A stretch of DNA of 64,000 nucleotides from Escherichia coli (lineage in GTDB: Bacteria > Pseudomonadota > Gammaproteobacteria > Enterobacterales > Enterobacteriaceae). Below the pieces are notes generated by a model. The model ran no database searches. It saw only the letters and a program-made list of their open reading frames with translations, and was not told where the DNA came from. The translations under genes were made by a program, and so were the position numbers. Each line of letters starts with the position of its first letter. Within the stretch, counting starts at the first letter, position 1. The DNA lies in the NCBI RefSeq assembly GCF_017348835.2, contig NZ_CP072315.1. One strand, 5' to 3'. Shown in pieces: positions 2,443-57,993 of this stretch.

Positions 2443-4227
2443 ATGGGTAAGCCAACAGAAGAGCAAAGACCTGTTATCGAGAATGCTAGCGCAAACAATA
2501 TGGTGATAGCAGCGCCTGGATCAGGCAAATCATTCACCATGATAGAAGCGGTTATATCGATTCTCAAAAAGTATCCATATGCAAGAATCGGGATGGTGAC
2601 CTTTACTCGCGCTGCAACAAACGCACTTGCAGCAAAGTTACAAAAGCGATTGAGCAAGAAGGATCTTGACCGGGTGCTGGTGGATACTTTTCACGGACTC
2701 GTTAAGAAGCAACTGGACATGATTCGCTGGCCGGGAAAGATGTTGATAGGGCCAGCACAGAGATCTGTCATTCACCGGGCTTTGAAAGAATCCGGTGTAA
2801 CGATGAAGTTTGCTGAAGCTGAATTCGTTATTGATGCTATCGGCAGAGAAATGGATACGGATGTGATTTCAGTTCGGCATAACAGACAACAGATCCATTT
2901 ATTTAATACCTATCAGGCGTTATGCCAGAAAGACCATGTGGCGGACCTCAATGCTCTTTCAAAATTTGTTGTCGGTCAAATGCATTCGGGAAAAATGCGC
3001 ACGTTAGATTTGACACATTTGATAGTAGACGAAGTTCAGGATACTGACTCTATACAATTCTCATGGATAGCATTGCATACAAGAGCTGGAGTCTATACGA
3101 GTATAGTTGGAGACGATGATCAGGCCATCTACTCCTTCAGATCCTCAGGAGGAGTCAAAATATTTCAACAGTTTGAAAAACACTTCAGACCTAACATATT
3201 TTACTTAAACACATGCTTTAGGTGTGAACCTGAAATTTTAGAGGTGGCCGGAGCACTGATAGGAAAGAATGTTTACCGTTATGCCAAAGAGTTACGCTCG
3301 GCAAAAAAGGGAGGAGGAAAGGTCACTTTTCGTTCATATGTAGATATGGAGGAACAGATACAGGGTATTTTAAGCCTTATAAATCAGGATCCACATGGAT
3401 GGGCAATTCTAAGCCGCAATAATGCTCACTTGGATGAGCTAGAAAGTTTGATCGAACAGCCAGTAATTCGTTACGGAGGTAAATCATTCTGGGATGAAAA
3501 AGAAACAAGCGATGTGTTAAGCCTTATGGCCTTTTTCCGACAATCAAATGATCCTCGCTTAATGAAGAGAGTATTGGCATTGTTTGGAGAACAGGAATCA
3601 GTTTTGGATGATGTGGCATTGAGTATGAGAGGAAGAAAAGTTACTTTTGGCGACCTTGCCATCCCGGAGGACAGTTCTCTCGAAACAAAAACATTACATT
3701 CAAACTTCGTGCGCTTTACCCAGGAAAGTACTGATAAAGTTGAGATAGCAAAACGTTTCGCCAACCTTACGAAATGGATGGAATCGTCGTCAATCAAGAT
3801 GAGGAGTAATAAAGGTACAGCAACCTTAACAAAAATTGCTTTAGACACTTGTAAACAGTGGGCAGAAAAGACTGGTTGGATGAATATGATCAATCGTGCT
3901 GCTGCAATGTCATTAGGCCCTAGGAAGAAGGACGAGGAATACAGCCCAGAGAAAGTAGTCCTATCAACCTTGCATGGTTCAAAGGGTCTTGAGTGGAATA
4001 AAGTAATAATAATGAGTTGTAATGCGGATCAGATACCAAGTAAAAGATCAGTTGGGGAGGAGGCAATAGAAGAAGAAAGACGTTTGCTTTATGTTGGATT
4101 TACGCGTGCAGAAAAGCAACTTTTTGTAATGTGGTATGGTGACCCTTCTTTCTTTTTAAGAGAATGCAGTGAAGAAAAGATAAAAGAAGCAGCTAATATT
4201 CGAATTTCTCCAGTTTATACAGAATAA
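2443..4227 (+). CDS. UvrD/Rep-type superfamily-1 DNA helicase
   Basis: Walker A AAPGSGKS, DEVQDTD (motif II), VGDDDQAIYSFR, C-terminal LHGSKGLEW and LLYVGFTRA. Confidence 0.85.
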   Translation: MGKPTEEQRPVIENASANNMVIAAPGSGKSFTMIEAVISILKKYPYARIGMVTFTRAATNALAAKLQKRLSKKDLDRVLVDTFHGLVKKQLDMIRWPGKMLIGPAQRSVIHRALKESGVTMKFAEAEFVIDAIGREMDTDVISVRHNRQQIHLFNTYQALCQKDHVADLNALSKFVVGQMHSGKMRTLDLTHLIVDEVQDTDSIQFSWIALHTRAGVYTSIVGDDDQAIYSFRSSGGVKIFQQFEKHFRPNIFYLNTCFRCEPEILEVAGALIGKNVYRYAKELRSAKKGGGKVTFRSYVDMEEQIQGILSLINQDPHGWAILSRNNAHLDELESLIEQPVIRYGGKSFWDEKETSDVLSLMAFFRQSNDPRLMKRVLALFGEQESVLDDVALSMRGRKVTFGDLAIPEDSSLETKTLHSNFVRFTQESTDKVEIAKRFANLTKWMESSSIKMRSNKGTATLTKIALDTCKQWAEKTGWMNMINRAAAMSLGPRKKDEEYSPEKVVLSTLHGSKGLEWNKVIIMSCNADQIPSKRSVGEEAIEEERRLLYVGFTRAEKQLFVMWYGDPSFFLRECSEEKIKEAANIRISPVYTE

Positions 4228-21769: not shown

Positions 21770-22750
21770 ATGAGCCTGGAGAAACGTATGAGTTATGACG
21801 ATTTGCCCTATTTTCGTGACCAGATTCTGGAACGTATCGACTCGCTTAAGTGTTTTCTTTCGAACACCCCCCCGCTGATGGCAAACCTGATGACTGTCTC
21901 CACCGTATCTCGAACAGAAGAGCGACTGAAGCAGGTTAAACCCATCAGGGTTAGTGTTAAAGACGATGCTTCGGTTGAGGAAATTATTCAGGCACTTACT
22001 GACATCTGTGTGGATGACATAGAGTCATTAAGTCATGATTCCACCAAAGTGACCACTAAATACCCGGGTCTTATCATTGTCCCAGAAAGAGCAGATCTTC
22101 TCGAAAGCTTGATCACATCTATAAATGAAGCAAAAAATGATTTTGCTGCGGCAATGAGGCGTATCGATAATAAAAAGAATGTCCGTTTTGATAAAGTGCA
22201 CAAGAAGCTCCCGGGCCTTGTCGCTATGCACTCAACAAGAAATGTCCTTTTCATCAAGTCCCAGCTTAAAAAAGTTACTTTTTCATGGCGGCTAAACCGA
22301 AACCAGGAAGTTAAAACAGCAGAGCAACTTGTGAGTTTGTTGGAGCGCAGGAGAGCCTCAGAAGTAAAAAATGTAGCAACTACCAATTTGAATGTCGTGT
22401 CTAATATCGATAAGGCTTTACACCGTCTTGAATTTCACCCACTGAAGCAGGGCGAATCTTATCGCCTTTGTCGAACTAACTCTTTCCCTGTTCCGATTGC
22501 TCACATTTTTGCATTTAGGCCTGAAGGGCAGGAACGAAACGGGAATAAATATGCTGAGACTGATTATTCAGTAGTAAAAGCATCCTTGCCCATTTTCGCA
22601 GCAGGCAACATACCTCAATTAAAAACGCTCTCTGACTGGGCTCCTGAAAACAGCCAGGGCCCGTCCAACCAACGGAAGCTGAGCCTGAAATATACAGAAC
22701 TCGTGCCGGGGGCTGAGCTGGGCATTTTCATTGTCAGCCCCGAAAATTAA
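21770..22750 (+). CDS. Tus-like protein (replication terminus-binding family), tentative
   Basis: VHKKLPGLVAMHSTRNVLF...VTFSWRLNRNQEVKTAEQLVSLLERR resembles my recollection of E. coli Tus [52 protein letters not shown]; similar length. Not verified by alignment. Confidence 0.45.
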   Translation: MSLEKRMSYDDLPYFRDQILERIDSLKCFLSNTPPLMANLMTVSTVSRTEERLKQVKPIRVSVKDDASVEEIIQALTDICVDDIESLSHDSTKVTTKYPGLIIVPERADLLESLITSINEAKNDFAAAMRRIDNKKNVRFDKVHKKLPGLVAMHSTRNVLFIKSQLKKVTFSWRLNRNQEVKTAEQLVSLLERRRASEVKNVATTNLNVVSNIDKALHRLEFHPLKQGESYRLCRTNSFPVPIAHIFAFRPEGQERNGNKYAETDYSVVKASLPIFAAGNIPQLKTLSDWAPENSQGPSNQRKLSLKYTELVPGAELGIFIVSPEN

Positions 22751-22759
22751 GGAACAACA

Positions 22760-23665
22760 ATGCAATGGATTTCCACAGCCAGCCAGAAAATCGATGAGCG
22801 TCTCTATCGTGTCTGCGTCTGGGTAAAAAAATATCACGCTGATGCGATTAACCGCGTTGTGCTTACCGTTGATCTAAGTAAAGCCCGACATGACCCTGAC
22901 GAGGACCAGGTAAGAGCAGAGCTGCTGTGCGGCCATTATTTTTTGCTTCGTAAGGAAAACGCTTCGAACTCTGCGCCTGACGATCAAAAGTTTGCTTTCC
23001 TGCCTGACGGGCGCAATCTGTGTTGGCAGACCGCAACCCCGGTGCTTCAGCATCTCCTGCTCAATAAAAACGTTCCTGAGTCGCTGAGGTTGCTTACGGA
23101 CTACATACATATGCGTCTGGCCAGGCTGACAATGGTACCAATGTCCGGAACCATCATGAACGAGGCTCTGCTGGACAGCATCAGCTGGGTTAAGGTGGAT
23201 TTGACCTACTTCTGGCAGTACGAACAGCTCAGCTCTCATCTGGGACCCATCCAGATAACCCACAAGGCACTAGTACGCTTCGGGCATCTGGCAAAGAATG
23301 ATGAAAACTCCAGTGCCATAAGAATCCTGCGTCAGCGTCTGTCTTCAGAATTCTTACAAGAATTTCAGATGGCTGAGGATGAGCTAAAGCGCAAACAGTC
23401 GTTGATGGGCACCATGGACGTGAAAATGCTGTTTCATGCTCATTACCCCAGCCAGAAGATGCTGGTGGCTCGATATAAAAATGGTTGGGTAATGGTGGAT
23501 TGTTTTCTGTTTCATCATACCAAACCTAAGAAAAAAGCAAAAAACAAAACTACTGTGGCTAAGCCTCAACTTAAAGAGACTAAAAGAGAAGGGAGTGAAA
23601 ATGGAACTGGGCATTATGGTGTGCATCGTGTTGTTACTCTCCGTGGCGGCGGCGTGGATCAGTAA
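22760..23665 (+). CDS. Hypothetical protein (301 aa)
   Basis: ORF 10 nt after the previous stop; no motif recognised. Confidence 0.45.
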   Translation: MQWISTASQKIDERLYRVCVWVKKYHADAINRVVLTVDLSKARHDPDEDQVRAELLCGHYFLLRKENASNSAPDDQKFAFLPDGRNLCWQTATPVLQHLLLNKNVPESLRLLTDYIHMRLARLTMVPMSGTIMNEALLDSISWVKVDLTYFWQYEQLSSHLGPIQITHKALVRFGHLAKNDENSSAIRILRQRLSSEFLQEFQMAEDELKRKQSLMGTMDVKMLFHAHYPSQKMLVARYKNGWVMVDCFLFHHTKPKKKAKNKTTVAKPQLKETKREGSENGTGHYGVHRVVTLRGGGVDQ

Positions 23666-23945
23666 TAAGACAGTTGATTTGCTCGAAAGATTCTATTTCA
23701 AGCGTCCGCTGAGCATGGAGTACGCGGCATGGCTACGTGTAATGTGTGCAGGCTTGTTATTGGTTTTTATTCAGGTTGCTCCACAATTTACACTTCTGTA
23801 TACCCTTAAACTTGTCACGCTTATTAATCTTGGAATCCAGACAATGAAATTAAATGGCGTGTACAAATATAAAAGAACGGGAATTTTGCCTCCGGGAGGG
23901 GCACTCTCTAATCTCACCAGACTTAACCCGTTCAAGAAAAAATAA
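23601..23945 (+). CDS. Small membrane protein (114 aa)
   Basis: ATG at 23601 with AAGGGAG RBS; overlaps the previous gene by 65 nt in another frame; two hydrophobic helices. Confidence 0.45.
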   Translation: MELGIMVCIVLLLSVAAAWISNKTVDLLERFYFKRPLSMEYAAWLRVMCAGLLLVFIQVAPQFTLLYTLKLVTLINLGIQTMKLNGVYKYKRTGILPPGGALSNLTRLNPFKKK

Positions 23946-23951
23946 AGTTAT

Positions 23952-23967
23952 GCGCCCGTGAGGGCGC
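23952..23967. terminator. Bidirectional hairpin between convergent genes
   Basis: GCGCCC-gtga-GGGCGC between the 23945 stop (+) and the 23967 stop (-). Confidence 0.5.
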
Positions 23968-25151
23968 TATTCATCAAAGGCATTTCGCATAAGCTTGATC
24001 ATTGCTTTTTTACCAGCTTCAATATTACGAATGTAGCGCATAACCATTTCTTCATTCGACCAGTTCCCCATTTCCATAATCTGTGGTAGCGAGTAACCTT
24101 CAATATTTAGCTGTATCGCTCCGCCTACACGAACGCTGTGCCCTGTCCAGTAACGAGTTTTAGTCTCATTTGGATAAAGCTCATTCCACATCTCTTTAAA
24201 TGCTCGTAAAAGGGAATTTTTGCTGAGCATACCGGCATCGTCCACAGTGTCTTCTTCATCTTCATCGTTCAGAAGACTTTGCTTAGCACGATAGGGTAGG
24301 TTATGCCTTTTAAGAAGTTCAGATAGCTCATTCCCCTTACTCCGAAGCTTCCAGCCGGGTGGCATATAGCCTGTATCATGGAAATTTACGGCCTGGAAAA
24401 GGAATTCATCCGGATGACTGTGCTGATCCATTTTCACGAGGTTCATCAATCTCAAGAGGCAGTTAGTTAACTGACGTGTCAGCCGGTAGGTAAGAAGTGT
24501 ACTAATGTTCGTTTTTGTACGGTATACCGTCAGGTTAAATTCACCGGTCATACTATCCAGAGACAGATCTTTCAGACGTATACGTCGAATTTCGGATGAA
24601 CGGAGCAGTGTTTCAAAGCCTGTCCAGATCAGGCACAGGTCACGAAGTTTACGAACTGAGTTTGTAGTACTGCGTAACTTTATCAGAGCCTTGAGATCGC
24701 CAATAAGAAAGGGAGTTGCCTGTTTAGTCGTCTTTCGCTTCCGGGCTTCCGATTGTTTTAAGGCTTCCAGCATGTACCATGCTTCAGACGTAATAATCCC
24801 GGGCAGGTTAAGCCCTTTTTTATGGATACTATTTAAGGCCTGAAGACAGCTGTTTATGCTGCTTCGTGACAATTTGCCTTCAAGATGCCCCATAAACGCA
24901 AGCAGAGCGTCCTCAGACACGGGGAGCGAACTTACTGGCCAGTCTGTATGCAACCGGGCATTCGCCAGATACCATTCGTTCCATACTCGTAGCCAGTGCA
25001 GATAGGTTTTAGCAGTGTTGTATCTCAGATGGGAAAAGTAACGGATCAAGCGTGAAAGCTGTTTATCATGGTTGCCGAACGTTTCCAGCTGCTGATGCAA
25101 TTCGCTTTCCGAAAACTGTCTGATCACTGATTGATTCTTCATCCTGCTCAC
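23967..25151 (-). CDS. Tyrosine site-specific recombinase (phage-integrase family)
   Basis: C-terminal catalytic signature HSVRVGGA (H-x-x-R) and the Tyr in MVMRYIRN; upstream Arg in LRSSEIRRIRLKDL. Confidence 0.8.
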   Translation of the reverse strand: MSRMKNQSVIRQFSESELHQQLETFGNHDKQLSRLIRYFSHLRYNTAKTYLHWLRVWNEWYLANARLHTDWPVSSLPVSEDALLAFMGHLEGKLSRSSINSCLQALNSIHKKGLNLPGIITSEAWYMLEALKQSEARKRKTTKQATPFLIGDLKALIKLRSTTNSVRKLRDLCLIWTGFETLLRSSEIRRIRLKDLSLDSMTGEFNLTVYRTKTNISTLLTYRLTRQLTNCLLRLMNLVKMDQHSHPDEFLFQAVNFHDTGYMPPGWKLRSKGNELSELLKRHNLPYRAKQSLLNDEDEEDTVDDAGMLSKNSLLRAFKEMWNELYPNETKTRYWTGHSVRVGGAIQLNIEGYSLPQIMEMGNWSNEEMVMRYIRNIEAGKKAMIKLMRNAFDE

Positions 25152-25312
25152 CGGGATACACTGGTTTTAATTACAGGTCATTTTAGCACTCATGTACCTG
25201 GTTATGAACAGGGTGGAAACAACGAAAAAGGTTGTGAAATCGTTAGGCTTAAGTGAAAAATGATATTAAGATTATCCCTGGCCAGTTGAGGCCTGTCTAA
25301 AGAAGGTTGATT

Positions 25313-25525
25313 ATGTCTGACACAAAGCAGTCTTATTTAATGAAATTCCGTAAGTGTAGTTCGTTCGAAACGCTCGAAAAAGTATTTGAAAGGTTATGTG
25401 AAAAAAACTCGGGTGTCGCCTCTCTTGAAATTTCTGGTGCTTATGATCATCGTAAAGCCGAACTGACAATGAAAAAGTTATATGACAAAGTTCCTGCGAG
25501 TGTGTGGACCTTTGTTCGCGAGTAA
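25313..25525 (+). CDS. hha: Hha/YmoA-family modulator (H-NS co-regulator)
   Basis: YLMKFRKCSSFETLEKVFE...YDHRKAELTMKKLYDKVPASVWTFVRE aligns by eye with E. coli Hha (YLMRLRRCQTIDTLERVIE...[26 protein letters not shown]). ATG at 25313 with GAAGG RBS. Confidence 0.8.
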   Translation: MSDTKQSYLMKFRKCSSFETLEKVFERLCEKNSGVASLEISGAYDHRKAELTMKKLYDKVPASVWTFVRE

Positions 25526-53485: not shown

Positions 53486-53761
53486 GTGGCTTCTGTTTCT
53501 ATCAGCTGTCCCTCCTGTTCAGCTACTGACGGGGTGGTGCGTAACGGCAAAAGCACCGCCGGACATCAGCGCTATCTCTGCTCTCACTGCCGTAAAACAT
53601 GGCAACTGCAGTTCACTTACACCGCTTCTCAACCCGGTACGCACCAGAAAATCATTGATATGGCCATGAATGGCGTTGGATGCCGGGCAACCGCCCGCAT
53701 TATGGGCGTTGGCCTCAACACGATTTTCCGCCATTTAAAAAACTCAGGCCGCAGTCGGTAA
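53486..53761 (+). CDS. insA: IS1 InsA
   Basis: [42 protein letters not shown]..., canonical InsA. Confidence 0.9.
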
Positions 53762-54183
53762 CCTCGCGCATACAGCCGGGCAGTGACGTCATCGTCTGCG
53801 CGGAAATGGACGAACAGTGGGGATACGTCGGGGCTAAATCGCGCCAGCGCTGGCTGTTTTACGCGTATGACAGGCTCCGGAAGACGGTTGTTGCGCACGT
53901 ATTCGGTGAACGCACTATGGCGACGCTGGGGCGTCTTATGAGCCTGCTGTCACCCTTTGACGTGGTGATATGGATGACGGATGGCTGGCCGCTGTATGAA
54001 TCCCGCCTGAAGGGAAAGCTGCACGTAATCAGCAAGCGATATACGCAGCGAATTGAGCGGCATAACCTGAATCTGAGGCAGCACCTGGCACGGCTGGGAC
54101 GGAAGTCGCTGTCGTTCTCAAAATCGGTGGAGCTGCATGACAAAGTCATCGGGCATTATCTGAACATAAAACACTATCAATAA
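53680..54183 (+). CDS. insB: IS1 InsB reading frame (expressed as InsAB' transposase by -1 frameshift)
   Basis: Canonical InsB sequence (...[36 protein letters not shown]...). Confidence 0.9.
53737..53743 (+). other. IS1 programmed -1 ribosomal frameshift motif A6C
   Basis: AAAAAAC inside the insA/insB overlap. Confidence 0.7.
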
Positions 54184-54949: not shown

Positions 54950-55330
54950 TTACAAATCAGCCCCTTTCACGGCATCATTTTGATTCTTCGCGTCTGCCCC
55001 CAGTAAGATGACCGGTTTTCTGCATGACAGTGTTATTCCTAACAAACGCAACACAAAACCACGCCAGCCAGAGCAAATTTTTTCATTTGCTGCGTAAAGC
55101 CTATTGTTTTCTCTTTTAAGCTTCGCCCACTCGTTACAGAGGGTAACATCATCAAGCGCTGTTATATGCTTCGCCTCACCTTCGACGATAACGGTATGGA
55201 TACCGTATGCTGTAAATCTCATACTATTTTCCAGAACCCAGTTGCGGTATTCGTCGAGTCCACCTTCGGAACCGGTAGCTCTGCGCCACATTTCAATTTG
55301 CTTGTGTGATGGGTCAAGTGTACTTGTCAT
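54950..55330 (-). CDS. Hypothetical protein (126 aa)
   Basis: ORF only. Confidence 0.4.
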   Translation of the reverse strand: MTSTLDPSHKQIEMWRRATGSEGGLDEYRNWVLENSMRFTAYGIHTVIVEGEAKHITALDDVTLCNEWAKLKRENNRLYAANEKICSGWRGFVLRLLGITLSCRKPVILLGADAKNQNDAVKGADL

Positions 55331-55960
55331 TGAAGCCTCGTCTCAGCGATAACGCTTGAAATAGCCCGCTTTGGTCATCATGAAATTAGCCATCTGACTG
55401 GCGATTTGATTGTATCTTACTCATAGTGCCCTACCTATAGGTTAAAAAGGGGCATTTTCGCTTTATAGCGTGTTCAGCAGCATCAATCCTCCCAAGAAAG
55501 GCTGGCTTATTAAGCCGGTCCATCATTTTCTGTATATCTCTCATCAATTTTTATATCCGCCCTGGAGTGCACCGTTCAAGCACACCGATTAGGCAGATAG
55601 TCACTAGTTAACTCTTTACTAGTGACTAAATTCCATTGATATACGTGACAACGTCACGTCATGAAAGCTTATAAATGCCTATTTTTCATACAATGGGATT
55701 TAATTAGGAGTAAATCCCATAGGCTTACATAAGGATGACAATTAAAAGCGTTAAATATCAACCAGATAGAATGATTACCCCCAATTAATGGGCTCATCAC
55801 ATTATTTCACTGGCTGGGGTTATTGCTGGCATATCTGAAAGTGCTAATATGTTAGTCATTAGTAATTAGTAAAGCCTTTACTAAACGCGTTTCTACGTAA
55901 ATTCTATAGGTTTTATAGTGTCCTACCTTTGCTCAAATCAAAATGTTCTGACATACCAAA

Positions 55961-56791
55961 ATGGAGTGTAAAATGACTCAAAACCAGGGTTCTGAGCCAG
56001 TACCGGCGAGCCGGACAGGGCAGCTCATCAGCGCCCGGGATATGGCCATGCAGAAATTCGAAGAAGGGATGCGGTTAATCTCGGAAGCGTCGGAACTGTG
56101 CGGTCTCTCTCTCTTCACCAGCAGAATTATGCAGCCCAACGCATTTGGTCTTCCGTCGTCACTGGATCGCACCATCGAGGAGGGGCGTAAGGAAATTGAC
56201 CGTAAAACGTGGAAAAGGCTCTTTGAAGAAACAGGTATGGACCGGTACTGGAACCATAAGCAAAAAGAAGCCTTTAACGAATCCCTTCGTACGGATCCGC
56301 CCGTCGCTTCCCTGGAGATTGTTAAGGGAACATTACAGCATGCACTGGCTAACAGACGAGACACCCTTGCAGAAGGTTTCGTTGATGTTCTCAACAAGCT
56401 TGACCGAAGTTTCAAAAGCAATGCCAGGCAATATACAATGCCAAAAAAGCTTGTTCTTCGGGGGATTTTTCCTGGTGTGAACGTGCTGAGGTACAACGGT
56501 TTCTCGCAGGACAATCACTTTTGTTTACGCGACTTTGAGAATATTGTATGCATCTGTTCTGATACTCCAACACCTGCAACCGGCGGTGGGCTGAGTATGG
56601 TCGACAGGCTGACGGCCATGAGAAATACAGAATTCACAGGCGAGGTCAGTGATGAGAATGGCTGGCGGTGTCGCCTGTTTGAGAATGGAAACGTTCATAT
56701 TTGCATCGACAGTATCTCGCTTCTGAATGCTCTGAACGATCTTATCAGCATATATTTTGCAAACCAGCTTCCGGCCGCAGGAAAAAAATGA
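55961..56791 (+). CDS. Hypothetical protein (276 aa)
   Basis: ORF whose stop overlaps the start of the next gene (ATGA); no motif recognised. Confidence 0.5.
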   Translation: MECKMTQNQGSEPVPASRTGQLISARDMAMQKFEEGMRLISEASELCGLSLFTSRIMQPNAFGLPSSLDRTIEEGRKEIDRKTWKRLFEETGMDRYWNHKQKEAFNESLRTDPPVASLEIVKGTLQHALANRRDTLAEGFVDVLNKLDRSFKSNARQYTMPKKLVLRGIFPGVNVLRYNGFSQDNHFCLRDFENIVCICSDTPTPATGGGLSMVDRLTAMRNTEFTGEVSDENGWRCRLFENGNVHICIDSISLLNALNDLISIYFANQLPAAGKK

Positions 56792-57993
56792 TGATTGAAA
56801 ATGATAAAGAAAAAAGCCTGAACGATGCTACCCCGCCAGAGGTGCAGAATGACATCCGCAGCGAATCCACTGAAAAATCAAAGGAAATGGGTCGTTCAAG
56901 GTACTCATCTATCGCGATGATCGATTACTTCAATGCAATCGAACGTCTGTGCAAAGAGAAAGAAATTAACCCGGAAAATATCGATCTGAGCTTCAAAGTT
57001 CACTGGCTCAGAAACGCTGTTGGCGGCTCGTTTGCAAGGTCACAGGAGATGTTCGCGGAGTACCAGAAGTATGTTAAAGAGGTTCCTGAAGAGGCCCGTT
57101 ACCTGGATATACCCGATGAGGTAAAGGTTGCACTCGGCGATATTATCTCGTACATCACCTGGCACTACCGTAGAAGCTATACCGCAATACAGAATGATAG
57201 TGTTAAAAAAGCTGAAGCACGTAGCATGCAGCTGGAGGAGGAGGTAACGCAGCTGTTACAGCGGCTTGAGCAAAGCGCTACCGATATGGATGAGCTGAAA
57301 CTTGAGAATCAGGCACTACAGGGTCGATTAGAGATCCGGGACAGTACCGTCAAGGAGTTAGAAACAAGGCTGAATGTTGCCGAAGCAGAACTCGAAACCT
57401 GCCATCACCAGTTAGATAGCACACGGCATGAATTGAGCCTCGCACAGCAGTCAAATGACTCACTCTCCCAGCAACTGGCTGAACGTAAAACAGAGATCGC
57501 TGGTCACCTTGAATATCAAAAAAAGCTGAACGAAGAGATCAACACGCAGCGTTCTGATAACGCCGGTCTTTCCAGACAATGCGACCAGTTAAGTCAGACT
57601 GTGTCAGATACAAAGGCAGAGAGGGACAGGTTTGAACAGGAATTGATTGCTGCACAGAACCTTTGTACTGAGCTGAAAAGTGCACTGTCCGGGAAAGAGG
57701 GTGACCTGGTGGCGGTGAATGCCGAGCTTACTGAACTCCATAAACTAAACGAGTCGCTGAGCGCCGACCTGAATAAAGTAACTTTGGTCAGCCAGGGCTA
57801 TGAAGCGGAAGTGGCTGAACAAAGCAATGAACTCAAAACGCTCCAGGCCAAAGTAATGAAGCTGGAAGCTACCCTGGAGGCGGAGAAAACAATCTCAGAA
57901 TCCCTAAAAGGCACCATTGATACATTAACTGGTGCAATGGCAGGGGGAGGTACTGGAAAGTCAAAACAGCCGCGTAGCAGAAAAACATCATGA
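56788..57993 (+). CDS. Coiled-coil protein, KfrA-like (tentative)
   Basis: N-terminal globular region followed by ~250 aa of heptad-like Q/E/L-rich sequence and a basic tail (GKSKQPRSRKTS); resemblance to KfrA is architectural only. Confidence 0.4.
   Translation: MMIENDKEKSLNDATPPEVQNDIRSESTEKSKEMGRSRYSSIAMIDYFNAIERLCKEKEINPENIDLSFKVHWLRNAVGGSFARSQEMFAEYQKYVKEVPEEARYLDIPDEVKVALGDIISYITWHYRRSYTAIQNDSVKKAEARSMQLEEEVTQLLQRLEQSATDMDELKLENQALQGRLEIRDSTVKELETRLNVAEAELETCHHQLDSTRHELSLAQQSNDSLSQQLAERKTEIAGHLEYQKKLNEEINTQRSDNAGLSRQCDQLSQTVSDTKAERDRFEQELIAAQNLCTELKSALSGKEGDLVAVNAELTELHKLNESLSADLNKVTLVSQGYEAEVAEQSNELKTLQAKVMKLEATLEAEKTISESLKGTIDTLTGAMAGGGTGKSKQPRSRKTS

Follow-up and report, generated by a model that had tools for sequence, protein, structure and literature searches.

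A conserved intergenic module of IncHI plasmids with operator-like arrays, a candidate recombination core, and an insertion point for a Tn7-like transposon

The locus and its motifs

The subject of this work is a 630-bp spacer between two divergent genes on an Escherichia coli plasmid, at positions 55331-55960 of a 64,000-nucleotide stretch of contig NZ_CP072315.1 that is called the window throughout. The window is part of the backbone of an IncHI2 resistance plasmid; 1173 plasmids in PLSDB match it, and those inspected are typed IncHI2A and have a MOBH relaxase. Judged by its sequence and conservation, the spacer carries a cis module of several sites that acts locally and is conserved among IncHI plasmids, and its content is far from chance.

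Four perfect inverted repeats mark the spacer. The first belongs to an element named S1, TAGTCACTAGT-N9-ACTAGTGACTA at 55598-55628, and is followed by P2, ACGTGAC-aac-GTCACGT at 55643-55659, and by P3, ATGGGATTTA-N8-TAAATCCCAT at 55693-55720. An earlier reading of the sequence (the original prediction) had listed these three palindromes together with two copies of a 14-nt direct repeat, ATAGTGCCCTACCT at 55423-55436 and ATAGTGTCCTACCT at 55915-55928, and a CTATAGG beside each copy (55435-55441 and 55904-55910), and every one of these motifs is present as described. The fourth palindrome, TTAGTAAAG-c-CTTTACTAA at 55866-55884, had been missed; it is part of a second array, S2.

The density of operator-like sites that had drawn attention to the region is borne out by comparison with shuffled sequence. 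Counting perfect arms of at least 7 nt (7-11 nt observed) separated by a spacer of no more than 10, there are four distinct inverted repeats, or seven if overlapping variants are counted; the average over 1000 dinucleotide-preserving shuffles is 0.6. The inverted-repeat count was matched by 1 of the 1000 shuffles and the summed arm length by none.

The motifs are also peculiar to this place. S1, S2, P2, and P3 have no other occurrence on the 246-kb IncHI2 plasmid NZ_LT795115, and because they are confined to a single locus on the plasmid, whatever binds them acts locally. The exact P3 pattern was found at eight loci among 100,044 species genomes, all in unrelated AT-rich environmental genomes, and these are taken as chance matches. 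The idea of a wider regulon was rejected; loose matches to ATAGTGYCCTACCT upstream of parA sit within a 249-bp tandem array and are probably coincidental. The array itself is an unannotated feature of about 3 kb between parA and a traC-like gene, with 9-10 copies of a ~249-bp tandem repeat (L030 20400-23500, which is 186.4-189.5 kb of NZ_LT795115), and it might be the ParAB centromere.

Both copies of the direct repeat, ATAGTG(C/T)CCTACCT, are present in the source sequence, but the repeat is not conserved. The first copy falls in a segment that is absent from IncHI1, and in IncHI2 relatives of the R478 type the second copy has the sequence AGAGGGTCCTAC, with CTATTGG beside it in place of CTATAGG. 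The second copy matters mainly through its overlap with the transposon insertion point described below.

The placement between divergent genes was described correctly. To the left is a gene for a hypothetical protein of 126 amino acids (aa), found both as an open reading frame (ORF) and in the annotation (54950..55330, minus strand), and to the right is a gene for a DUF4942 protein (55973..56791, plus strand; Pfam E = 2.7e-26). The DUF4942 gene overlaps the start of a gene for a 401-aa protein with coiled-coil Pfam matches (56788..57993, plus strand). The spacer had been described as lying upstream of a KfrA-like gene; the gene directly downstream is the one for DUF4942, and the description holds only in the sense that the coiled-coil gene is second in that operon.

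The 126-aa gene is specific to IncHI2 and is absent at the IncHI1 locus. Its product matches no Pfam family, and homologues with 46-56% identity are encoded on IncI1 and Klebsiella IncF plasmids beside ProQ/FinO or Hha genes. The IncHI1 orthologue of the DUF4942 protein is 63-64% identical, and a second DUF4942 protein, of 563 aa, is encoded elsewhere on the IncHI2 backbone near a dam-type methyltransferase gene (L030 41686-43377). Other genes in the window include ter genes, a Tus-like gene, a tyrosine recombinase gene, hha, and hipBA.

In intact relatives the leftward operon passes through a DUF6884 gene toward the H-NS-like gene sfh. In the window, an IS1 copy at 53486-54183 replaces about 7 kb that other IncHI2 plasmids keep, with a helicase gene, an HNH gene, the H-NS-like sfh, and small ORFs, and as a result this plasmid has lost sfh along with the far end of the leftward operon.

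The left part of the spacer (55331..55590) is specific to IncHI2, has no IncHI1 counterpart, and contains a terminator-like hairpin at 55500-55520. This half is also a hotspot for joins to foreign DNA; homology ends in relatives at 55508, 55532, and 55572, and the plasmids with these breakpoints carry KPC-, IS26-, or other insertion sequence-associated segments nearby. Small ORFs of 38 and 40 aa in the spacer were rejected as genes on the evidence that all three between-lineage substitutions are non-synonymous and that a stop codon is lost in the sister lineage; one of these ORFs encloses the terminator-like hairpin, a further reason for rejection.

Conservation across IncHI2 and IncHI1

Within IncHI2, the spacer is the most diverged part of its neighbourhood, with 91-94% identity versus 97-99% in the flanking genes. 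A variable segment to the right of P3 (55721..55815) is replaced between lineages, and over 55770-55815 the source stretch is 64% identical to the R478-type lineage while the flanking genes remain at 98-99%.

The same locus exists on IncHI1 plasmids, both the pHCM1/R27-like ones and IncHI1B. The gene order runs from sfh to a leftward DUF6884 gene, the spacer, and the rightward DUF4942 and coiled-coil genes, and the locus continues with leftward DUF1173 and dcm genes. Flanking proteins of the two groups are about 63% identical, and the IncHI2 spacer used as a blastn query in 'distant' mode retrieved no IncHI1 plasmid. S1, P2, P3, and S2 all persist in IncHI1 in unchanged order. Identity between IncHI2 and IncHI1 is 0.89 for P3, 0.82 for P2, 0.78 for S2, 0.63 for S1, and 0.62 for a promoter block, and it is 0.18-0.49 in the gaps between the conserved elements.

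Four elements have been kept while the intergenic DNA around them has become unalignable, which argues for a cis-acting, operator-like cluster under selection. The original prediction proposed a cis-acting maintenance locus; this much of it survives, and the specific roles that it suggested, as a centromere, an origin, or a transfer-associated region, do not. For transfer, the MobH relaxase gene, mobI, and the mobI-trhR gap presumed to hold oriT are about 80 kb away (on NZ_LT795115, mobH, mobI, and traD lie at 16.7-23.1 kb and the spacer at ~104 kb). A role as the conjugative leading region likewise finds no support in position, Tra1 and oriT being ~80 kb distant. For vegetative replication, the repHI2 and RepB-type genes are elsewhere, at ~200.7 kb and ~216.3 kb of NZ_LT795115, and the spacer contains no iterons of 17-22 bp. 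The partition functions, parA/parB and parM, are located in Tra2, and deletion of the locus in R27 was not destabilising, as taken up below.

A search of the whole 64-kb window against Rfam gave no match at the gathering score, and a more sensitive search of the region gave only sub-threshold chance matches. One of these, to Hammerhead HH9 (55986-56050, minus strand; 22 bits against a gathering score of 52, E = 0.01), sits within the coding sequence for DUF4942, and we ascribe it to chance.

Heptad arrays, candidate promoters, and the coiled-coil protein

S1 and S2 are both built from the 7-bp unit TAGTNAN, and the two arrays are inverted with respect to each other. S1 (55598..55628) reads TAGTCAC TAGTTAA ctc TTTACTA GTGACTA, and S2 (55853..55884), which includes TTAGTAAAG-c-CTTTACTAA, reads TAGTCAT TAGTAAT TAGTAAA gcc TTTACTA A. 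They are 80% complementary with 229 nt between them. The IncHI1 counterpart of S1 is TTTAGTCATGCCTTTACTAATAACTAGTTACC, and in two relatives (L008 and L009) S2 has exactly one additional 7-bp unit. P2 keeps its core, GTGAC-N3-GTCAC, in IncHI1, and its central triplet varies (aac, acc, ggt).

A candidate rightward promoter on the plus strand consists of TTGCTG at 55823-55828, a 16-nt spacer, and the extended -10 element TGcTAATAT at 55842-55850. The six aligned IncHI1 and IncHI2 sequences all share its TTG and TGCTAAT without change, directly upstream of S2. From this arrangement we infer that rightward transcription would start near 55857, on the first S2 heptad, with S2 at about +1 to +30. On the other side, S1 in IncHI1 abuts a perfect leftward TATAAT, as read from the sequence. 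In IncHI2 the leftward TATAAT next to S1 has decayed, and there is a weak candidate on the minus strand with TTGAAC (55579 to 55574), 18 nt, and TATAAA (55555 to 55550).

The 401-aa protein encoded behind the DUF4942 gene begins with a helical domain and continues as a long coiled coil, with coiled-coil Pfam families matching at residues 160-377; an alignment of 11 family members likewise shows a long C-terminal coiled coil. The label 'KfrA-like' suits this architecture, but the query has no Pfam match to KfrA_N (PF11740) even at E <=10, and 1 of the 11 family members matches that domain weakly (E = 9.4e-4). A tblastn search of 72,556 plasmids with residues 1-156 (E <=0.01) returned 1429 records. 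Judged by identity bands and 50 sampled rows, these are all of IncHI2 or IncHI1 type, the same set as the motif carriers, with no pSLT-type tlpA among them. A word-indexed protein search with the N-terminus gave fragments only. The R27 orthologue, R0158, is annotated as tlpA (PMC4853401 Table S2); the name is an old annotation, and homology to the N-terminus of pSLT TlpA is not borne out by tblastn. Its position and architecture make the coiled-coil protein the best candidate for the binder of S1 and S2.

Two known types of system offer points of comparison. KfrA of IncP-1 and IncU plasmids and TlpA of pSLT also combine a small helical N-terminal domain with a long coiled coil, and they have repeated or palindromic sites in the upstream control region. 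Unlike those genes, the one here is second in an operon behind DUF4942, and the query has no KfrA_N match. The arrays themselves resemble the omega-repressor heptads of the inc18 plasmid pSM19035 in having 7-bp units, direct and inverted, in variable number, at promoters. The omega arrays of pSM19035 act as both operators and centromeres. The unit here is TAGTNAN rather than WATCACW, the host range is Gram-negative, and, unlike the omega system, the locus has no identified ribbon-helix-helix protein and no partition ATPase nearby; the arrays here are candidate operators.

P3, a candidate crossover site

P3, ATGGGATTTA-attaggag-TAAATCCCAT, consists of two 10-bp inverted arms around an asymmetric 8-bp spacer. 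The arms are identical at 10 of 10 positions across IncHI1 and IncHI2, and the central spacer varies by lineage (ATTAGGAG, ATTCGGGG, ATTATCGG, ATTATGGG). The element is essentially single-copy on each plasmid, with 1400 places in 1397 records. Its half-site centres are 18 bp apart, or about 1.7 helical turns. The cores used by tyrosine recombinases (dif, cer, loxP, FRT) have half-site centres 17-21 bp apart, and P3 shares further features of a core site, with arms in the range of 9-13 bp, an asymmetric centre of 6-8 bp, and fixed arms around a variable centre.

The same plan, in which an asymmetric 8-bp centre separates two inverted arms each about 10 bp long, is found in the cer/psi-XerCD, loxP-Cre, and rfsF-ResD systems. 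Like cer, loxP, and rfsF, P3 combines fixed arms and a variable centre with about one copy per plasmid, and a few crossovers appear to map to it. Its arms are unrelated to the XerC/XerD, Cre, or FLP sites, and the gene of the candidate recombinase is 30 kb away.

The candidate crossovers at P3 comprise one laboratory fusion and two natural mosaic boundaries, a small sample. The fusion plasmid, pCLDRW_444k, arose by co-selection from the IncHI2 plasmid pLD91-1-MCR1 and the IncHI1 plasmid pRW7-1_235k_tetX, and its junctions are at intI1 and at a 42-bp sequence that contains P3 (PMC8653826). When the diagnostic primers of that study are mapped, the forward one falls in the 126-aa gene of IncHI2 and the reverse one in the spacer of IncHI1. 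The size of the amplicon, 580 bp, agrees with 423 bp of IncHI2 sequence that runs to P3 and 162 bp of IncHI1 sequence that starts there. At P3 the parents share only ATGGGATTTAATTnGGnGTAAATCCCATAG, that is, two identical runs of 13 bp with unrelated flanks, and elsewhere they carry much longer identical copies of IS26, IS1, and intI1.

The natural boundaries come from both plasmid groups. One R478-type plasmid (L008) is a mosaic with an ST3-type patch from 55432 to 55692, and the switch lies inside 55693-55719. To the left of P3, the IncHI1 lineage 0H24 matches the pHCM1 type at 93-100% identity; from mid-P3 identity is about 50% for 120 bp and then 66-75%, and it is >=90% again from ~40 bp upstream of the DUF4942 start codon. 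The IncHI1 segment from mid-P3 to ~40 bp before the DUF4942 start has the appearance of a swappable lineage cassette (L014 ~3720-3960 compared with L024), and its right boundary is within ~10-15 bp of the insertion point of the Tn7-like element.

The candidate enzyme for P3 is a XerC/D-like protein encoded at 23967..25151 on the minus strand, with Phage_integrase and SAM-like N-terminal domains. It is the only tyrosine recombinase of the backbone, its gene adjoins the Tus-like and Hha genes, and a 63% orthologue in IncHI1 co-occurs with P3. The R27 protein, R0183, is annotated as cre-like (PMC4853401). The Tus-like and recombinase genes are neighbours in IncHI2 (21770-25500, with hha directly after) and also in a Klebsiella MOBH plasmid (L035 2917-6621), an association that suggests a plasmid module for termination and dimer resolution.

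A probable transposon attachment site

At its right edge the spacer holds a probable attachment site for the Tn6230-family Tn7-like sil/pco transposon (55893..55928), which is empty in the source stretch. The site includes a conserved CTACG (55893-55897), and the insertion point (55920-55926) overlaps the second ATAGTGTCCTACCT copy. In many relatives homology stops at 55924 or 55926, and the sequence joined there, TGTCCGA(G/A)GACAATAAAGTTGTACAC..., is the tnsA-proximal end of a Tn7-like sil/pco element. The joined junction is present in 549 of 1172 matching plasmids; in 3 of 40 sampled rows, the transposon end is on a plasmid without the spacer junction.

There are three independent insertions across two plasmid families. 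All are in one orientation with the tnsA end facing S2, and they lie within 2-4 alignment columns of one another (junctions at L004 6590-6600, L002 6592-6602, and L026 5566-5575). The pentamer at the insertion is GTCCT in ST3-type IncHI2, CCTAC in the R478 type, and GGTGG at the orthologous IncHI1 position, and the target-site duplications of relatives map to 55920-55924 (GTCCT) and 55922-55926 (CCTAC). In the R478 type, the transposon end is a sequence variant and homology resumes at CCTAC, which gives a 5-bp duplication. The far-end duplication was seen in this analysis for CCTAC only, and the IncHI1 element is truncated. For IncHI2, Fang 2016 (PMC4855149) reported direct repeats of 5 bp with the sequences GTCCT and GGTCC.

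The insertions lie to the right of both conserved sequences, 23-27 bp from CTACG and 40-70 bp from S2. The TnsD protein of Tn7 binds its target on the same side and at the same distance as CTACG and S2 here. The likeness to attTn7 extends to TnsABC-type insertion at a fixed distance and orientation beside a recognised sequence and to the 5-bp duplications. In contrast to attTn7, the target here consists of AT-rich control DNA that precedes an operon on a plasmid and is not the 3' end of a conserved gene.

On 675 E. coli chromosomes, the 3' end of yhiN is occupied by the same element, and the plasmid insertion site has no sequence similarity to the chromosomal yhiN site. Reviews describe the molecular details of Tn6230 targeting as unknown (PMC11406308). 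The element encodes TnsA, TnsB, TnsC, and TnsD, plus a 308-aa protein directly downstream of tnsD (L032 17945-18871, inside the transposon on the E. coli 55989 chromosome, and L004 10677-11603). The 308-aa protein has a weak TniQ match (E = 6e-4, below the Pfam cut-off) and could serve the plasmid site as an additional target selector. In relatives of Tn5053, TniQ targets plasmid resolution sites, which has earned them the name 'res hunters' (PMC11406308), and there is a parallel in that the attachment site here adjoins a probable recombination locus.

Proposed explanation

The explanation that we favour, at a probability of roughly 0.55, is that the spacer works as a control hub for several proteins, conserved in the backbone of IncHI1 and IncHI2 plasmids, in which three layers are combined: operators, a recombination core, and a transposon attachment site. 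The hub would sit between the leftward operon and the rightward DUF4942/coiled-coil operon. Conservation, uniqueness on the plasmid, junction positions, and occupancy are the observations that this proposal builds on; the binding proteins, the transcription starts, and the catalysis are inferred.

For the first layer, we tentatively suggest that S1, S2, and P2 are operators for locally encoded DNA-binding proteins, the best placed of which would be the coiled-coil protein acting as an autorepressor in the manner of KfrA and TlpA. S2 would cover the predicted start of the conserved TTG-16/17-TGnTAnnnT promoter, and in IncHI1 S1 would cover the -35 and spacer region of the leftward TATAAT promoter. 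For the second, the odds seem about even that a site-specific recombinase uses P3 as its core site, the most plausible enzyme being the plasmid's own XerC/D-like tyrosine recombinase, with a role in dimer resolution. Rare exchange between plasmids at P3 would account for the mosaics.

The third layer is the firmest, and the insertion point is likely to be a specific att site of the Tn6230-family sil/pco transposon. Recognition would involve the DNA 25-70 bp to the left of 55920-55926, a stretch that covers S2 and CTACG. The recogniser could be the second TniQ-like protein of the element, an assignment that we regard as possible but doubtful. It is a more speculative and rather unlikely step to suppose that a standing protein-DNA complex, made up of the heptad operators and the recombination core, serves as a plasmid-specific homing site for the sil/pco element and is read by the short TniQ-like selector. 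A bolder extension would treat S1-P3-S2 as a mini-terminus similar to Ter-dif-Ter, served by the neighbouring Tus-like and recombinase genes.

A number of observations weigh against this explanation. For the operator layer, the N-terminal domain of the coiled-coil protein has no Pfam match, and its structure model is all-helical but weak (pLDDT, the model's confidence score, of 62) and found no structural match in the PDB. In a weight-matrix scan, the rightward promoter scores 6.1 against a median of 9.2 for the shuffle maximum, and no promoter candidate exceeded the median best score of shuffled sequence; a consensus sigma-70 scan of the region found no site. The sequence scans are thus uninformative, and the promoter calls are founded on conservation. 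In about half of IncHI2 plasmids, a 32-kb transposon separates the promoter and S2 from the DUF4942 gene, which makes the link between promoter and gene dispensable.

The recombination layer has its own difficulties. The authors of the fusion study attributed it to homologous recombination (PMC8653826), and chimeric queries in both orders found no natural IncHI2/IncHI1 hybrid at P3 in PLSDB. The recombinase gene does not adjoin P3, as would be expected of a core site, but is 30 kb from it; no P3-like half-site is found beside that gene, and the Tus-like and recombinase genes form a conserved module of their own. In R27, neither deletion Del14, which spans the locus, nor the single deletion of the recombinase gene, Del183, caused noticeable loss of stability (PMC4853401). 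Fixed arms with a free spacer also fit a dimeric repressor as well as they fit a recombinase.

Alternative explanations

The last of these points leads to the most serious alternative, which is that the spacer is concerned purely with transcriptional control. S1, S2, P2, and P3 would then all be operators, the crossovers at P3 would be accidents of the sole identical DNA that the diverged plasmids have in common, and the transposon would simply favour AT-rich or bent promoter DNA, so that both the crossovers and the insertion preference would be incidental. Much of the evidence sits comfortably with such a scheme, including the position between divergent genes, the promoter-like elements that adjoin S1 and S2, the confinement of the motifs to the spacer as autoregulation predicts, and the fixed arms and free centre expected of a dimeric regulator. 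The R27 deletion without a stability phenotype and the authors' view of the fusion as homologous recombination agree with it too. It is the geometry and the junctions that make it unlikely. A distance of 18 bp between half-site centres is awkward for a simple dimeric repressor and is typical of tyrosine-recombinase cores. The fusion parents share mere 13-bp runs at P3 and far longer identity at IS26, IS1, and intI1, and three separate boundaries fall on one 28-bp interval. The insertions, for their part, lie within 2-4 bp of one another in one orientation across two plasmid families.

An auxiliary segregation site is a considerably weaker alternative. The heptad arrays would here be bound by the KfrA-like coiled-coil protein in a centromere-like manner, a proposal close to the original prediction and one that follows what has been suggested for KfrA systems and the example of the pSM19035 omega arrays. 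It draws on the 7-bp units in direct and inverted orientation and variable copy number, and on the gene next door for a long coiled-coil protein with an N-terminal domain (one family member matching KfrA_N at E = 9e-4). No partition ATPase gene is nearby, however, with ParAB and ParMR both encoded in Tra2, and in about half of IncHI2 plasmids the 32-kb insertion splits the site from the operon. The R27 data also oppose it: the orthologous P3 is at 146,788-146,827 of R27, inside Del14 (144,480-150,565), and Del14 is not among the stability-reducing deletions (PMC4853401 text and Table S2), even though it removes both the coiled-coil gene and the site. These findings leave a centromere-like role improbable.

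Less probable again is a miniature replication terminus, in which S1 and S2 would be fork-arrest sites for the Tus-like protein on either side of a dif-like P3, as in the chromosomal Ter-dif-Ter arrangement. In its favour, the Tus-like gene of IncHI plasmids is the direct neighbour of the recombinase gene, as it is in a Klebsiella MOBH plasmid, P3 is flanked by S1 and S2 in opposite orientations, and on its opposite strand the IncHI1 S1 contains GTAACTA, part of the Ter core. S1 and S2 were rejected as Ter sites for want of a match to the canonical core GTTGTAACTA; in addition, heptads in variable number are unlike Ter, and the Tus-like protein is not tied to the locus. A perfect E. coli-type core, GTTGTAACTA, occurs just once on NZ_LT795115, in Tra1 (L029 25300-25309), some 2 kb away from the gap presumed to hold oriT.

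The most remote of the alternatives is that the spacer serves as an origin, for transfer or for replication, or as a structured element of RNA or single-stranded DNA (a small RNA, a leading-region single-strand promoter, or a single-strand initiation site). Although the strands fold better than shuffles (DNA z = -5.4 plus, -3.5 minus) and distant DUF4942 homologues occur on IncI1 and IncL (pOXA-48-size) plasmids, where they are presumably leading-region genes, no Rfam family matches, the extra stability comes from short symmetric palindromes and is seen on both strands, the arms are conserved in sequence without compensatory changes, and the relaxase/oriT region and rep genes are as distant as described above, with iterons lacking.

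Significance for IncHI plasmids

The IncHI1 and IncHI2 plasmids are major carriers of multidrug resistance, of mcr-1 colistin and tet(X4) tigecycline resistance, and of metal resistance, and their backbone is mostly uncharacterised. The analysis resolves an unannotated gap of 630 bp into five discrete, mapped elements that both IncHI groups conserve. The spot at which the sil/pco Tn7-like element enters IncHI plasmids has been identified, and a fragment of ~110 bp spans it. Recombination at P3 is offered as a specific mechanism for the laboratory IncHI1-IncHI2 fusion that united mcr-1 and tet(X4).

Should the proposed homing site prove real, the sil/pco transposon would be a two-pathway element, with yhiN as its chromosomal target and the spacer as its target on IncHI plasmids, and would resemble the 'res hunters' of the Tn5053 group. 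Such a homing site would also explain the consistent carriage of silver and copper resistance on IncHI plasmids.

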